A DNA stretch of 61,211 bases from a virus. The position numbers and the translations under genes are program-made. Location: IMG/VR virus record IMGVR_UViG_3300045988_081724. The stretch is one strand, 5' to 3'. The notes beneath the pieces are model-generated. The model did not search any database. It had not been told where the DNA came from and saw only the letters and a list, made by a program, of their open reading frames with translations. This document shows positions 41,093 through 47,099 of the stretch, one piece after another (within the stretch, counting starts at the first letter, position 1; the number at the start of each line of letters is the position of its first letter).

Positions 41093-41671
41093 CTATTCTT
41101 TCAGCATGTTTAAAAATCTTTCTTGGTTTTCCATACTGTTGAATATTCCGCTTGTCTCAAGTGTTACTGTTTTAGTTCCAGGCTTCTTGATACCTCTAGC
41201 GGTTACGCATGAGTGTTCTGCCTGTATTCTTACCGCTACGTCATTTCCTACTACCTTTGTCATGACTTCAAGAATGTCTTTCCCGAGTCGCTCCTGTAGT
41301 TGTAGGCGCTTTGCGCACATTTCCGCAATGCGTGCTACTTTTGATAATCCAATAACCTTGCCATTCGGCATGTAACCTACATCGACTTTCATGTTGTACA
41401 TTAGAGCAAGGTGGTGTTCGCAATATGAGAATACAGGGATTTCTTTTATTATAACGATACCTTTTGAGGTGGTAGGAAAGCTCTTACCAAACATTTTGGC
41501 AATATCATCGTTACTGTATTTTTCCCCTTCCCATACTTCATTTAGCATCTTTATTACTCGCTTAGGAGTTTCTTCAAGCCCCGGGTGTTTTTGTGGGTCA
41601 ATTTTCAATGCTAGTAGTAACGCAAAAATGGCGGCTTCTGCCGCTTTGTTATCTGTTTCCATGTTATACAC
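41093..41671 (-). CDS. folE: GTP cyclohydrolase I
   Basis: Motifs SYCEHHL and ...RLQLQERL... Confidence 0.85.
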   Translation of the reverse strand: MYNMETDNKAAEAAIFALLLALKIDPQKHPGLEETPKRVIKMLNEVWEGEKYSNDDIAKMFGKSFPTTSKGIVIIKEIPVFSYCEHHLALMYNMKVDVGYMPNGKVIGLSKVARIAEMCAKRLQLQERLGKDILEVMTKVVGNDVAVRIQAEHSCVTARGIKKPGTKTVTLETSGIFNSMENQERFLNMLKE

Positions 41672-42293
41672 CTCTTTCCATGGGATTCCATATAAATTTG
41701 TGAAGCTGGAGCTGAATACGCCAGTTTTGTAAATTGTGCTTCTTCATATACGCTACAATGTCTCTCGGCTCGATTTTACCGAACACCGGGCTTATATATA
41801 CCTGCGCTTTTGGGTCATACGTGCTATACACGTTATGGGCTTGATCGAGATCGTCCTGACTTCCTACTACGAATTTCAGTACATCCTGTTTCCTCAGTGC
41901 CCAAAAATTTTCCTCTAACATATGCTTGCTCATGCCGGAGCACCCACACTTGTAATCAATCGTAAACCATGCATTTTTATGTCGCATGTATGGGATAATT
42001 AAAATGCTACCGTTTGTCTCAATGTTAACATCATGCTCCGTAAGCCTATCCAGTAGCCCATGAACATCTTGAAATAACGGTTCTCCGCCTGTTAATGTAA
42101 CATTCTTGTAAGATACCTTTTTCACAATATCTTCGATTTCCATTTCTTCCCCTTCATTGAAGGTATATATAGAATCGCAGTACGTGCATCGAAGGTTACA
42201 TCCAGTTAGACGAATAAAGGACGTAAGCTCTCCAGCTCTACGCCCTTCTCCATCAATGCTATCAAAAATTTCGTTAACTTTAAGTTTCTTCAT
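41664..42293 (-). CDS. queE: 7-carboxy-7-deazaguanine synthase (radical SAM)
   Basis: CNLRCTYCD cluster near the N-terminus; size 209 aa. Confidence 0.8.
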   Translation of the reverse strand: MKKLKVNEIFDSIDGEGRRAGELTSFIRLTGCNLRCTYCDSIYTFNEGEEMEIEDIVKKVSYKNVTLTGGEPLFQDVHGLLDRLTEHDVNIETNGSILIIPYMRHKNAWFTIDYKCGCSGMSKHMLEENFWALRKQDVLKFVVGSQDDLDQAHNVYSTYDPKAQVYISPVFGKIEPRDIVAYMKKHNLQNWRIQLQLHKFIWNPMERGV

Positions 42294-42615
42294 AGATAGC
42301 CACGTTCCCTTCGCTTTCCTGTACCTGTACCTTTACGCAGTACGGAACGTTGTCATGAATCCATTTGGCAATGTTTTCCGCAGTTGGGTTCATGTTTGGC
42401 AGAACCTCATTTACATACTGATGATCTAAGTTCTCCTTTACTGCTTCACTAATGTGCTTGAAGTCTACGACCATGCCATTTTCATTGAGCGTTTCTGCTT
42501 TGCAGGTTACGTAGATAATCCAGTTATGCCCATGAAGATTACTGCACTTGCTTTTATATGGAAGTGTGAGCTTGTGTGCGCCAGCCACTTCCAGTCTTTT
42601 TGTCACTGTGTACAT
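42280..42615 (-). CDS. queD: 6-carboxy-5,6,7,8-tetrahydropterin synthase
   Basis: CSNLHGHNW motif; 111 aa. Confidence 0.8.
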   Translation of the reverse strand: MYTVTKRLEVAGAHKLTLPYKSKCSNLHGHNWIIYVTCKAETLNENGMVVDFKHISEAVKENLDHQYVNEVLPNMNPTAENIAKWIHDNVPYCVKVQVQESEGNVAIYEET

Positions 42616-42616
42616 T

Positions 42617-43324
42617 TCAGTCCTCCAATGCAGGGTCTTTTACACCATTTTTACGAAAAGCATTTGCTCTATCTATGCACGTTCCGCACGTCCCGCACGG
42701 CTTTTCTTTTCCTTCGTAGCAGCTCCAGGTTAGTTTATAAGGTGCATTCAGCTTTAATCCGACAGCCACCACACCGGCTTTATTCAACTTCGCAAGGGGG
42801 AATTTTAGATGAACTTTGCCATAAGTGCCAATTTTTATAGCTCTTCCCAACGCTTGCAAGAAAGGTTCGCTACAATCTGCATAAGCGTCTCCTGCTGCAT
42901 CATCTGCGTGTGCGCCGATATAAATATCAACCTCATCCTCCTCGAATAGACTTGCCGCGAGCGATGCAGCTGTCGAGAGCATAAGACCATTGCGGAACGG
43001 TACATAAGTTGAAACTTTGCCTTCTCCATTCTTGGCAATCTGCTCGGCATAGCTCTCGTGTATAATTTCTTCCGTGGAGCCCTTAAGAAGGGAGCAATTC
43101 GAATACTGGAAAATAGCAGAAAGATCAAACTCATAGTGCCGTACATGGTAGTACTCCGCAACCTTGCGTGCCGCAAGGATTTCCTTTTCGTGCTTCTGCC
43201 CATAAAAAATAGAAGCAGTCACTACATTTTCAGCACCTAATTCTTTAACTGCAATAGATACGCAAGTTGTGGAATCTACGCCACCGCTAGATAAAACAAT
43301 GGCTTTCTTATTTATTAAGTTCAT
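42617..43324 (-). CDS. queC: 7-cyano-7-deazaguanine synthase (start MNLINKK at 43324; the ORF extends to 43432)
   Basis: PP-loop SSGGVDS; C-terminal zinc site CGTCGTC. Confidence 0.85.
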
Positions 43325-43790
43325 GAATATATTCTTCTTTCCGATTTTTAACGAGCCCCAAATTATCCCCAGCGTTTGCAAAAGGCTTAATGCTGATGCC
43401 ACCCCTAGGATTGAACAAGCCATAGACCTCAATATATTTAGGGTCGAGCAATTTTTTTAAGTCTTTCATAATCATATTTACGCAATCTTCATGAAAGTCT
43501 CCGTTATTTCTGAAACTAAAAAGATACAGTTTTAGTGACTTGCTTTCGACAAGATAATTGCGCGGAATATAATTGATTATGATTGTTGCAAAATCCGGCT
43601 GTCCTGTTTTTGGGCAGAGACTTGTAAACTCTGGGCAATGTAAGTGAACCACATAATCATTGTCGGGATGTTTATTTTTAAATTTTTCTAATAAATTTGG
43701 ATCATACTCTTGCCTATATATGGTTTTTTTGCTTCCTAAAGAGTTAACGCCTTCCAACTCATTTAAGGTTCTCATAGATAATTCCTCCAC
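43308..43790 (-). CDS. queF: NADPH-dependent 7-cyano-7-deazaguanine reductase
   Basis: [15 protein letters not shown] and ESKSLKLY motifs. Confidence 0.8.
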
Positions 43791-44590
43791 TTTTCTTCAT
43801 ATTCCCTTTGCATCGCCATTCCTCTCTTATAAGCTTCAAGTTCAACTAGATCTCTATTCTTGGCGATTCTTATCCAGTCGCTATCAATTTTTCGCCCATC
43901 CATCACTGCATAGCGAACAGGCGAACTCCACGAACTACTATCAACAAAATCAAAAGGAACTTTATCTAACACATCACGGCGTGTCATGCCTAGACAATGC
44001 ATTTTGCAGCCATATTGTTTGGCTCTCTTCAAAAACATCAAATATTGGTCGTCTTTAATATCCTCATTTTTGAATCCTGATACGGCTATAATCTTTCCTT
44101 GGAAATCACGACACATTTTATTGAACTCCGCAATGCCGCGACCTTTGTGCCAAACTGGAATGATTTTATTTGAAACGTTCATTAGCTTTCTTCGCAATTC
44201 CAACACGCGCGGATAGCCAACAATAGCATCAATATCTATTTCAAAAAATCCTAAAATGTTCGGTTTGTCGAAAGTTTGAATAAATTTCGCATATTTGTCT
44301 ACGTATGTCTCCCATTCTACCCGCTTCCCTTTCTGGAAACTGTGCGCACCACTGTCAACTAGCATAAGTTCACTATTATCTCGGATACAAGTCGCACGTT
44401 TTAAAAAACCTGAATTTTTCAAATAGTAATAAGATACTAGATTATATTTAAGACGAAATGGCAAGTTTTTAACGTCTTTCAGCCATGAGTTTTCTGGACG
44501 TATCCCATGCTCTAACGAAGATAAAAATATTTTCATTAGAGCACCTTCTTGAAAAATGCTTTGCCCGCAATATGATGACACTTGGGACAC
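43772..44590 (-). CDS. dpdA: tRNA-guanine-transglycosylase-like protein (DpdA-like 7-deazaguanine DNA transglycosylase, inferred)
   Basis: [12 protein letters not shown] resembles the TGT DSGGFQ motif; context downstream of folE-queEDCF. Confidence 0.55.
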
Positions 44591-45042: not shown

Positions 45043-45050
45043 TAAAAAAC

Positions 45051-45080
45051 CTACGACTAAACGCCGTAGGAGTTAAATTT
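45051..45080. terminator. Rho-independent terminator at the end of the tRNA array, 10 nt upstream of the ParB-like/late operon start
   Basis: Hairpin CCTACG-N9-CGTAGG with TTTTTTATT on the minus strand. Confidence 0.6.
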
Positions 45081-45244
45081 GACCTGCCCTGTTTTCCGAT
45101 ATCAAAGAAAATCATTGGTTTAGCAGCAAAAAACATAAGATAAAAGTATTAGGCACAACATATCGACTTATGCTTTGTTACAAGGCAGGTGTTAAGTTGT
45201 AATGCGGTTTCACATGGATGCTAATGTATGCTAGACCGCGCTAG

Positions 45245-45314
45245 GGTTAGGAATGGATTTGAACCATTATTTGGCGATTTCAGGTCGCCCGTTTTACCAT
45301 TAAACTACCTAACC
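45245..45314 (-). tRNA. tRNA (70 nt, no encoded CCA); anticodon loop CCUGAAA, apparent anticodon UGA with non-canonical C33 and a short variable arm; identity uncertain
   Basis: Manual cloverleaf: acceptor GGTTAGG/CCTAACC, D-arm GTTT-AATGGTA-AAAC, anticodon stem GGCGA/TCGCC, T-arm AATGG-TTCAAAT-CCATT. Confidence 0.5.
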
Positions 45315-45426
45315 ATGCAGTGCCTCTAATGTACACTCATCATGAATACATAAGAGGCAAACATTGAGGGGGTGTAAACGGTGGATCAGTCCCTCTCCAG
45401 TGGAGAAACCTTACACTCATTTACAT

Positions 45427-45490
45427 TGGTGAGCAGCACTAGATTTGAACTAGCAAAGTCTTTTGACCGCAAATTTACGGTTAGCTACTC
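45427..45490 (-). pseudogene. Truncated tRNA-like element: duplicate of the 3' part of the adjacent tRNA-Tyr (T-arm, acceptor, CCA) with no anticodon arm
   Basis: Shares GTCAAAAGACTT-CTAGTTCAAATCTAGTGCTGC-CACCA with 45512-45594; 64 nt. Confidence 0.4.
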
Positions 45491-45511
45491 TATACTCCCT
45501 AGTCGCATACA

Positions 45512-45594
45512 TGGTGGGCAGCACTAGATTTGAACTAGTGAAGTCTTTTGACTCAGACTTACGGTCTGTCCTTTAGCCGCTTGGATAGCTGCCC
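45512..45594 (-). tRNA. tRNA-Tyr(GUA)-like, class II (long variable arm), anticodon loop CCGUAAG with C33
   Basis: Acceptor GGGCAGC/GCTGCCC plus ACCA; D-loop AAGCGGCTAAA; T-arm CACTAG?TTCAAAT. Confidence 0.55.
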
Positions 45595-45629
45595 ATGTAT
45601 TGTAAACCATTTTCGCGATACTACGAAAA

Positions 45630-45705
45630 TGGTGGGGACAGCAGGACTTGAACCCACATCGAAGCGGTTATGAGCCGCTTGCTTTACCATTTAAGCTATA
45701 TCCCC
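45630..45705 (-). tRNA. tRNA-Met(CAU) (elongator type; could be Ile2)
   Basis: 76 nt including CCA; anticodon stem AGCGG/CCGCT; loop CUCAUAA. Confidence 0.7.
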
Positions 45706-45717
45706 AAAGACGCATTG

Positions 45718-45780
45718 TGGGTTTGGAAGGACTTGAACCCTCGACACAAAATCGCTCTAGCCAACTGAGCTACAAACCCA
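45718..45780 (-). ncRNA. 63-nt tRNA-like element with acceptor, D-arm and T-arm but no anticodon arm
   Basis: GGGTTTG-TA-GCTCAGTTGGCTAGAGC-GATTTTGTGTC-GAGGGTTCAAGTCCTTC-CAAACCC-A. Confidence 0.4.
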
Positions 45781-46543
45781 TATGCAAGGCAAGCTCGTGG
45801 CTCACCTTGCACTTATCATTCGGAGGAAACCGAATCTTCATGCCGAGCAAAACAGGTCGTCGCCCCTCTTTTGCTCATGTAAAGGGTAAAACGGGTAGTT
45901 AGCCGATTTCACCCACATATGCGCTCTACGCCCGCACAAGCGCAGAGCTAACTTTCCTTAGCCAAGAAACATTTAAGCGGCGCAGCCTAGTTTTTCCCAA
46001 TGACGGCTACACTTCATGAGTACGATAACCCGATAGTACGTCCGGCACATGTGAACCCATCAAAAGTTCGCTTTAGAATTAGTTGAGAGCGTGTTCACAC
46101 TGTTGCTTCCCCTAACGTTGGGAACTTTTAGCATCCACGACTGCTCCAACACTCCGCAGCAGAGTATTTTCCTTTTTACGTTAGACCCGAAGGAAGAAAC
46201 GCCGTTTTTCTGTGCATGAGCTTAACGATAACTCTCCACTCCGGTAAGTGGAACCCCCTGTTTAGAGCCTTAGAAACAGCACTAGTACCGTCCCATGCAT
46301 GCAGGGACACGCTTTTTCGTAGGTGTAGCGCGCACCGGACACTTTTAAGGTGCTCCGAACCATCCTTCCATTTTCGTAAGGAAACTTTAGCACGCCACTC
46401 TATCGCTGTGGATTGCGCTCTGTCCTTTATACTGATGACATGCTGTCAGCCGCACGCTACATTTTTGCCATGGCATGTTGTGCGGAGCTGGTGGGAGTCA
46501 TTTATACTCGCCCCCCGGAGAGTGCTGCCTTTTCGGCAACCAT

Positions 46544-46617
46544 TGGCAGGGAGTGATGGAATCGAACCATCGATGCAGGAGTCAAATTCCCGTGCCTTAC
46601 CTCTTGGCGAACCCCCT
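46544..46617 (-). tRNA. tRNA-Gln(UUG)
   Basis: 74 nt including CCA; anticodon stem CGGGA/TCCTG; loop AUUUGAC; T-arm GATGG-TTCGATT-CCATC. Confidence 0.7.
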
Positions 46618-46723
46618 ATAATTCCATGTAGTTATTGCTACATGGAGTGATACCGCAACGATATTACGCGCTCCCATGCGGTTAGGATACGCCCCTATAT
46701 TTTAAGCCACTTGGGTAGGCTAT

Positions 46724-46815
46724 TGGCGGATACAGTAGGATTTGCACCTACGAGCGGCTTACAATCCGCTTCTTGCTTAGCAGGCAAGCACCTTCGACTA
46801 CTCGGTCATGTATCC
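46724..46815 (-). tRNA. tRNA-Ser(GCU)
   Basis: 92 nt; anticodon stem CTTGC/GCAAG; loop CUGCUAA; long variable arm; CCA encoded. Confidence 0.7.
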
Positions 46816-46816
46816 A

Positions 46817-46905
46817 TGGCGGAAGCGGTAGGATTCGAACCTACGCCCAGTTTCCCAGCTCTCTGTTTTCAAGACAGTTCCCTTTGACCTCTTGGGTACG
46901 CTTCC
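46817..46905 (-). tRNA. tRNA-Ser(UGA)
   Basis: 89 nt; loop CUUGAAA; long variable arm GAGCTGGGAAACTGGGC; T-arm GTAGG-TTCGAAT-CCTAC; CCA encoded. Confidence 0.7.
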
Positions 46906-47099
46906 ATGCGACAAGGTGTGTTGCTTCACCTTGTCAGATTTGTGGAGGTGTCATGCCACTAGGCATGACCACAAGGAAGAAAGCCAATTCTTTTTTTTGC
47001 GGAAACGCTTAGAAGTATTCTCGCTTGATAGAATGGAACTCGCAAATGCTTATTCGTTGGCTACAATAATTATAACATATGATTATACCGTAAATCTTC

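Follow-up and report, generated by a model that had tools for sequence, protein, structure and literature searches.

Unusual tRNA-like elements with apparently remodelled anticodon arms in the tRNA cassette of a temperate gut phage

The window analysed here is the whole stretch of 61,211 nucleotides (nt) of the IMG/VR virus record IMGVR_UViG_3300045988_081724. It derives from a temperate contractile-tailed gut phage (myovirus) with genes for the large terminase, portal, head protease, major head protein, sheath, tape measure and a large serine recombinase, and nearly all of its genes are located on the minus strand. Between a small-gene region and the packaging module, about 1.9 kb hold no credible open reading frame (ORF), and the G+C content of this stretch is 0.46-0.53 versus 0.30-0.42 in the flanks. 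The stretch carries a tRNA cassette on the minus strand (46905-45244), composed of four canonical tRNAs, a 764-nt ORF-free RNA candidate, and four odd elements (Table 1). The odd elements are a 71-nt tRNA with the anticodon loop CCUGAAA (hereafter CCUGAAA tRNA), a Tyr-like tRNA, a 64-nt partial duplicate of tRNA-Tyr, and a 62-nt armless element in which the anticodon arm is missing. From their variation among relatives, one of these elements appears to be debris, one a common deletion allele, and two constrained non-canonical tRNAs.

The array was searched with ARAGORN and with the Rfam tRNA model (RF00005, gathering score 29 bits) under default and lax filters. ARAGORN called five minus-strand tRNAs, namely Ser-UGA, Ser-GCU, Gln-UUG, Met-CAU, and the 71-nt gene, which it labelled 'Ser tga'. 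The Rfam model with default filters found the same five and the 62-nt element. The minimum-free-energy folds are cloverleaf-like, with z-scores of -2.3 to -3.7. The agreement of both tools bears out an earlier reading made from the letters alone (hereafter the sequence-only reading), which had described Ser-UGA, Ser-GCU, Gln-UUG, and Met-CAU as well formed, and all elements lie on the minus strand where it had placed them. Its fifth well-formed tRNA, the Tyr-like one, does not deserve this description, since its anticodon stem has neither the 27:43 pair nor nucleotide 26 and ARAGORN misses it. Its concern that the odd structures might be folding errors can be set aside: folding error or chance is excluded because two independent tools agree on the folds and 30 independent assemblies from different studies agree on the sequences. 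No transfer-messenger RNA (tmRNA) was returned by the ARAGORN tmRNA search or by Rfam.

Table 1 Features of the cassette in the order of the minus strand (positions of the window)
Feature	Position	Strand	Description	Support
tRNA-Ser(UGA)	46817..46905	-	Canonical; long variable arm; CCA encoded; first cassette gene	ARAGORN; Rfam 55.1 bits
tRNA-Ser(GCU)	46724..46815	-	Canonical	ARAGORN; Rfam 56 bits; 0 variable columns among 14 arrays
tRNA-Gln(UUG)	46544..46617	-	Canonical; CCA adjoins the large RNA candidate	ARAGORN; Rfam 53.9 bits
764-nt RNA candidate	45780..46543	-	ORF-free, G+C-rich, conserved; between tRNA-Gln and the armless element	No Rfam family
62-nt armless element	45718..45779	-	Acceptor stem, D arm, T arm; AUUUU replaces the 17-nt anticodon arm	Rfam 46.0 bits
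tRNA-Met(CAU)	45630..45705	-	Canonical; CCA encoded; 12 nt after the armless element	ARAGORN; Rfam 63.9 bits
Tyr-like tRNA	45512..45594	-	tRNA-Tyr(GUA) body; long variable arm; CCA; anticodon arm CAGA-CCGUAAG-UCUG	Rfam 33.3 bits, lax filters only
Spacer	45491..45511	-	21 nt between the Tyr-like tRNA and the partial duplicate	Lies within an 82-nt insertion that single-copy alleles do not have
64-nt partial tRNA-Tyr duplicate	45427..45490	-	Acceptor-like stem, anticodon-arm remnant, variable arm, T arm, CCA; no D arm	Rfam 20.4 bits, below gathering
71-nt CCUGAAA tRNA	45244..45314	-	Class I; loop CCUGAAA; C33; anticodon UGA; C73; no encoded CCA	Rfam 67.3 bits
Terminator-like hairpin	45050..45070	-	Intrinsic-terminator-like hairpin, then a U run; cassette end, ahead of the ParB-like gene	Stem with a compensatory change in L216

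The comparison set consisted of 30 copies of the array, each assembled independently from a human-gut metagenome. Relatives were collected by exact-pattern, ParB-guided, metagenome-pattern, and terminase-guided scans together with an exact look-up of the ParB protein (indexed in 210 blocks). No cultured phage resembled the array beyond generic tRNA similarity.

The armless element is recognized by the Rfam tRNA model with E = 1.2e-6 over the whole window, and in the Rfam alignment 5 nt stand in place of 17 model positions of the anticodon arm, which a canonical tRNA would have. The sequence-only reading was right that the acceptor, D, and T arms are kept and the anticodon arm is missing, and erred only in the length, which is 62 rather than 63 nt. 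At the same position, one relative (L008) has an intact 74-nt tRNA-Lys(CUU), which is called by ARAGORN and scores 61.4 bits with Rfam. This Lys allele also occurs in L085, L216, and L234, and the slot is filled by tRNA-Arg(CCU) with a strengthened stem pair in L093 (3327-3401). Over the 30 arrays, the Lys/Arg slot is armless in 25, Lys in 4, and Arg in 1. Alignment of the armless element with the Lys and Arg alleles reveals a 12-nt gap that takes out the anticodon stem-loop, and the element agrees with the Arg allele in its variable loop (GUGUC) and in the 3' strand of the T stem. The T-stem pair 50:64 is G-C in the Lys allele, G-U in the Arg allele, and A-U in the armless form. In the sole armless variant (L084), two stem positions are changed and no pair is broken, and the stems are paired across the alleles. 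By these comparisons, the armless element is very probably a deletion allele of an intact tRNA-Lys/Arg gene. We also considered the tRNA-like domain of a tmRNA and rejected it: the element has G3:C70 instead of G3:U70, a normal D arm, and no match to tmRNA.

The Tyr slot shows a second kind of change. The Tyr-like tRNA was called neither by ARAGORN nor by Rfam with default filters; the canonical allele of the slot scores 46.8 bits. This canonical tRNA-Tyr, present in L003/L005 and in 10 further arrays, has the loop CUGUAAA on a 5-bp stem (GCAGA/UCUGC). The Tyr-like form occurs in 19 arrays and the canonical form in 11. Differences between the two alleles are concentrated in the anticodon arm: in the alignment, A26, G27, and C43 are lost from the Tyr-like allele and U33C and A38G are substituted, so that C32 and G38 could pair. 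Its loop, CCGUAAG, carries C33 as the sequence-only reading had noticed. The Tyr-like element departs from a canonical tRNA in having no 5-bp anticodon stem, no U33, and no nucleotide 26, and the resulting arm seems to be a shorter, tidy hairpin and not a broken one. The 19 copies represent two sequences that differ at four sites, A5:U68 being changed to G5:C68 and A49:U65 to G49:C65, and the odd arm is the same in both. Since the two variants differ by exactly two compensatory base pairs, the Tyr-like RNA looks structurally constrained.

Directly behind the Tyr slot, half of the arrays (15 of 30) contain the 64-nt partial duplicate, which shares with tRNA-Tyr a direct repeat of 41 nt at 93% identity. 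In 14 arrays the gene before it is the Tyr-like one and in one array (L237) the canonical tRNA-Tyr, whereas five arrays have the Tyr-like gene without a duplicate. The latter, single-copy Tyr-like allele is unlikely to be a product of assembly collapse, since the repeat of 41-57 nt is short against k = 119-141 and five contigs carry the allele. The sequence-only reading correctly recognized a partial duplicate. However, the copy still has part of the anticodon stem-loop in mutated form (GCUAA CCGUAAA UUUGC), and the D arm is lost instead. Seven sequence variants are found among the 15 copies, in which A2-C71, A5-G68, and pairs of the hairpin are broken. With homology to its paralogue, a lost arm, and unconstrained substitutions, the 64-nt copy has the features of a tRNA pseudogene and is evidently debris, a decaying remnant of a partial tandem duplication. 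The contrast between these neighbours, pair-preserving changes in the Tyr-like tRNA and pair-breaking changes in the duplicate, is the best evidence that the former is constrained and the latter is debris. The spacer between them (21 or 25 nt) was considered as a decayed 5' half of tRNA-Tyr and rejected, since 1115 of 2000 shuffled sequences score at least as high.

The CCUGAAA tRNA has the highest Rfam tRNA score in the window, over the full-length model, and the cloverleaf is its minimum-free-energy fold. It has a 7-bp acceptor stem, a D arm with G18 and G19, a 5-bp anticodon stem, a 7-nt loop, and a UUCRANY T loop. On the other hand, it does not have U33 and does not conform to a single identity: the loop reads C32 C33 U34 G35 A36 A37 A38, the variable region is of 4 nt, and C73 and a U at -1 are encoded. 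The C33, the UGA, the short variable region, and the missing CCA had all been noted in the sequence-only reading, which gave the length as 70 instead of 71 nt. The anticodon arm does not differ between any of the 30 arrays. Changes occur only in the D loop, at position 26, and in the T stem; there, 49:65 is either A-U or G-C, and 50:64 is an A-C mismatch in some copies. In total, 5.6% of the columns vary, whereas neighbouring genes vary at 11-19% of their third codon positions and neighbouring spacers at 19-23% of their columns. Cultured phages gave no match to this tRNA, and an IMG/VR pattern search recovered it from the same lineage only. A metagenome pattern that allowed any loop between the same stems found no other loop; all three true matches carry CCTGAAA, and nine matches were by chance. 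The tRNA is also absent from the nearest outgroup. From its conservation, it appears to be neither a duplicate nor degenerate, and to be fixed in its non-canonical form in all copies.

An ordinary decoder is one conceivable explanation of the CCUGAAA tRNA. It would read UCA/UCN despite C33, or it would present GAA to Phe codons with the U-turn shifted to the only U of the loop. The perfect cloverleaf, the top tRNA score, and the purifying selection would fit such a role, and UCA accounts for 19% of the Ser codons of the phage while TTT/TTC are abundant. Its G27:C43, G28:C42, U20, and U60 also match part of what we take to be the identity set of E. coli tRNA-Phe. However, no bacterial synthetase rule accommodates UGA on a class I body; seryl-tRNA synthetase needs a long variable arm, as both canonical Ser tRNAs of the cassette have, and one of these is already a canonical tRNA-Ser(UGA). 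C73 is otherwise typical of tRNA-His, yet the encoded -1 nucleotide is U and not G, and another amino acid at UCA would be mutagenic. To our knowledge, U33 is almost universal in elongator tRNAs. We know of no bacterial identity set that fits a class I body together with anticodon UGA, C33, C73, and U at -1, and we consider an ordinary decoding function quite improbable. A counterpart by description may be tRNA-Other of Bacillus cereus, a pseudo-tRNA that acts outside translation and affects physiology (PMC3399842). It is likewise conserved and well folded with non-standard identity features, but it is chromosomal and its effects have been shown by deletion.

The 764-nt RNA candidate contains no substantial minus-strand ORF, and no gene is called at this place in the relatives. 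No Rfam family, GOLLD and ROOL included, matched at E <= 10, either in a 2.6-kb search or with the isolated 764 nt, and neither this RNA nor the odd elements matched a Y-RNA-like or other Rfam family. In this RNA, 7% of the columns vary versus 11-19% at third codon positions, which is two to three times below synonymous-like sites. The folding z-score is modest (-2.2). In divergent patches, loops are changed while stems are retained, and three pairs are altered on both sides. The hairpin at 45948-45923 has two covarying pairs, and the hairpin at 46383-46366 has its loop in three versions. An internal repeat, UGCUAAA(A)GUUYCC...GGRAAG, is present at 46392-46365 and 46133-46106. The RNA ends in a 13-bp hairpin, and the armless element begins 4 nt later. 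Homologues were found by nhmmer on about 245 fetched loci in the same lineage only, and a search pattern based on the divergent patch of L084 had 0 matches. Like GOLLD and ROOL (PMC12286853, PMC5737381), it is a large, ORF-free, structured-looking RNA among (pro)phage tRNAs; unlike them, it matches no model, and homologues beyond this phage lineage were not found. The candidate may represent a new large RNA in phage tRNA islands. Kissing of the odd anticodon loops with loops of this RNA was considered and dropped, since a canonical loop also has a 6-mer match as the Tyr-like loop does, and the matching hairpin loop differs in L090, which has the Tyr-like allele.

The distribution of the alleles suggests exchange. 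Homology to a second backbone (L004/L156) runs from 46907 to 45079, which coincides with the cassette limits, and the array is about 98% identical on such backbones (L004/L156, L216, and L232-L241), whose terminases are only 86-87% identical. Among the 30 arrays, the slot alleles occur in all combinations, and recombinant patches are visible; the alleles are therefore old and have been reshuffled by recombination. An outgroup with a terminase of 81% identity has only Ser, Met, Tyr, Ser, and Gln tRNAs, all canonical, and neither the Lys slot, the CCUGAAA tRNA, nor the large RNA. Considering these comparisons, the odd elements other than the fixed CCUGAAA tRNA very probably originated as derived alleles of tRNA genes. 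What is seen here appears to be the remodelling of tRNA genes in progress and not a new kind of RNA, as intact versions exist in sister phages.

A strong hairpin and a short leader precede each tRNA or tRNA-like element on the minus strand (46906-46940, 46621-46645, 45784-45810, 45599-45626, and 45319-45357). U is found at -1 in seven of eight elements, the exception being the 64-nt duplicate with A at -1. These leader hairpins and the U at -1 look like processing or spacing signals of a polycistronic precursor. Since the acceptor stem and T arm are kept, U stands at -1 in 7/8, and leader hairpins are present, all four odd elements are probably excised as tRNA-like RNAs. The cassette would be transcribed as one precursor up to the terminator and cut by host tRNA-processing enzymes, and the kept acceptor stem and T arm (in the armless element also the D arm) would serve as modules for RNase P, RNase Z/3' exonucleases, and the CCA-adding enzyme. 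The armless element may act as a punctuation mark, in that an RNase P cut immediately before it would release the 3' end of the upstream 764-nt RNA. A comparable arrangement is that of mascRNA, a tRNA-like element through which RNase P generates the 3' end of MALAT1 (PMC8457004). In both, an element of about 60 nt that is tRNA-shaped but has no functional anticodon arm stands next to a long structured RNA, here 4 nt 3' of it. However, the MALAT1 system is eukaryotic and nuclear, whereas the element here is evidently a recent derivative of a real tRNA gene, and an intact tRNA would serve equally.

The armless element and the 64-nt duplicate are unable to decode. The Tyr-like and CCUGAAA tRNAs would be held by selection as folded tRNA bodies, and since their anticodon arms misfit the decoding geometry or the identity rules, they probably serve for something other than ordinary codon reading. 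Normal decoding by the Tyr-like RNA, which is one pair short between elbow and anticodon and carries C33, is unlikely. For these two constrained members together, we regard a non-decoding role as evenly balanced. Our overall explanation, which we favour slightly, is that of an exchangeable RNA cassette with remodelled alleles, whose products would be processed, tRNA-shaped, and non-decoding.

Several observations weigh against this explanation. Few covarying pairs were counted, and the shuffle controls for the Tyr-like, CCUGAAA, and armless elements are not significant by themselves, with 71-157 of 500 shuffles attaining the observed values (96 of 500 for the small Tyr-like sample). The low diversity of the armless and Tyr-like forms could come from young alleles of single origin instead of constraint. 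The compensatory pairs of the Tyr-like tRNA could stem from an unsampled canonical allele that received the odd arm by gene conversion over a short tract; the recombinant patches seen nearby measure about 100 nt. U33C and a 4-bp anticodon stem are no strict bar to decoding. Furthermore, the outgroup gets by with five canonical tRNAs, and therefore the odd elements are not essential to the phage group.

Part of this evidence also fits neutral decay, in which the tRNAs of a temperate phage are dispensable and all odd elements are functionless pseudogenes, eventually the CCUGAAA tRNA too. Intact and broken alleles segregate among nearly identical phages, tRNA-Ser(GCU) is cleanly deleted in one array (L148, 916-1184), and the decay of the 64-nt duplicate, the reduced tRNA set of the outgroup, and the statistical weakness of the covariation all agree with it. 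Like known tRNA pseudogenes and partial duplicates, the cassette thus has a 3' copy with unconstrained changes, an armless deletion derivative, and the loss of a whole gene. However, the armless allele is the majority form with its remaining stems paired, and the Tyr-like and CCUGAAA tRNAs evolve in a pair-preserving manner, unlike pseudogenes. The best-scoring tRNA with its invariant arm, a compensatory T-stem pair, and few variable columns is hard to reconcile with decay, as is the Tyr-like tRNA, in which two compensatory pairs are the only difference between the variants, next to a duplicate that gains pair-breaking changes. The removal of both 27:43 partners and the gain of a C32-G38 pair in the Tyr-like arm also amount to a coordinated change. 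We consider neutral decay of all four elements rather unlikely. The sequence-only reading had raised degenerate remnants of duplication among its possibilities; this applies to the 64-nt copy, and not to the armless, Tyr-like, and CCUGAAA elements. The decoys and processing signals that it had also proposed would agree with the anatomy of the elements.

The identity of the polymorphic slots brings in nucleases that cut anticodons. In E. coli, the anticodon stem of tRNA-Lys is the cutting site of PARIS, and changes in the stem-loop allow T5 to escape. PrrC targets tRNA-Lys, and PtuAB of retron-Eco7 depletes tRNA-Tyr (PMC11555353). P2 OLD cuts off the anticodon arm at paired CNG motifs, and a phage tRNA-Thr resists by loss of 27:43 and an altered motif (PMC12445682). 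A counter-defence function of phage tRNAs has been proposed in general form (PMC10264068). By analogy, the anticodon arms of the cassette could have been remodelled under such nucleases: the Tyr-like and CCUGAAA tRNAs would be cleavage-resistant, the armless element would be a titrating mimic or an allele with an advantage wherever an intact tRNA is harmful, and varying defence repertoires of the hosts would keep both intact and remodelled alleles. Consistent with this idea, Lys and Tyr are known nuclease targets, and C33 occurs in two different constrained tRNAs. The allele differences of the Tyr slot gather in the anticodon arm, and the canonical Tyr stem has paired CAG/CUG, from which the Tyr-like allele has lost exactly 27:43, the pair lost in the OLD-resistant tRNA-Thr. 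The nuclease-escaping tRNA islands (T5 tRNA-Lys against PARIS, tRNA-Thr against P2 OLD, T5 tRNA-Tyr against retron-Eco7) resemble the cassette as phage tRNA clusters with variable Lys and Tyr members and changes in the anticodon arm, including 27:43 loss. The Tyr-like tRNA, with GUA kept and the arm changed, would be of the nuclease-resistant type (T5 tRNA-Lys, phage tRNA-Thr6) only if the targeted host tRNA has this anticodon; the armless element has no anticodon.

However, the resistant tRNAs of these islands keep a 7-nt loop, U33, and decoding, whereas the forms here are an armless body, a C33 arm that is three nt short, and a misfit anticodon. An armless tRNA cannot replace a depleted one, and the Tyr-like allele retains the CAG/CUG motif. 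The OLD-resistant tRNA is not a competitive inhibitor, which by analogy weakens the decoy idea. The precedents all come from E. coli or mycobacteria and the host is approached only through a nearest genome match, a metagenome-assembled genome (MAG) of Clostridia, and therefore no matching nuclease can be named; an exact DNA pattern gave 0 matches in species-representative genomes. A tRNA nuclease encoded by the phage itself was also rejected, since the window has no ORF of the size of OLD, PARIS, or PrrC and ten accessory ORFs contain no nuclease domain. We consider counter-defence unlikely as the general cause of the remodelling. Even more doubtful is its extended form, a mobile RNA counter-defence module in which the armless Lys/Arg body, the shortened C33 Tyr body, and the C33/C73 tRNA would act as non-cleavable mimics or sponges, perhaps together with the 764-nt RNA as a third large-RNA class beside GOLLD and ROOL, with balancing selection across host defence repertoires keeping both kinds of alleles.

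Phage tRNA genes are being reinterpreted as weapons against tRNA-destroying defences, and the cassette offers a natural series of intact, anticodon-switched, arm-shortened, and arm-deleted alleles in near-identical phages, with Lys and Tyr, the best-known nuclease targets, as the variable slots. If the remodelled forms are tolerated debris, the cassette would still be a clean case of tRNA-array turnover by deletion, duplication, and recombination. Since gene callers mislabel the 71-nt tRNA as 'Ser' and skip the Tyr-like tRNA, counts of phage tRNA repertoires are biased.

Around the array, two plus-strand ORFs of 144 and 84 amino acids were rejected as genes, since they have no Pfam match and gene callers call none there in relatives. 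The Ser-Gln spacer (46618-46723, minus strand) contains short stretches like the 5' end of tRNA-Ser(UGA), AGCCUACCCAAGUGG and CGCAUGGGAGCG. These repeats (D8, D17) are not claimed as debris of a third Ser gene, since chance alone is estimated to give as many in 1.8 kb.

Downstream of the terminator, a ParB-like gene is followed by a 7-deazaguanine cluster (DpdA-like, QueF, QueC, QueD, QueE, FolE), which lies at 41093-44590 of the window. In a sister backbone (L232-L241, 1701-8008), genes for an ATP-grasp protein, a TAGT-like protein, an Orn/Arg decarboxylase, and a GLF-like flavoenzyme are found instead. This looks like the swap of a DNA-modification cassette between the array and the terminase. 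More distant relatives (L104, L105, L107, and L190-L228; terminase about 62% identical), including prophages of Phascolarctobacterium, have a single tRNA-Tyr(GUA) about 1 kb upstream of the terminase gene, and tRNA-Tyr seems to be the tRNA most often kept by the wider phage group.

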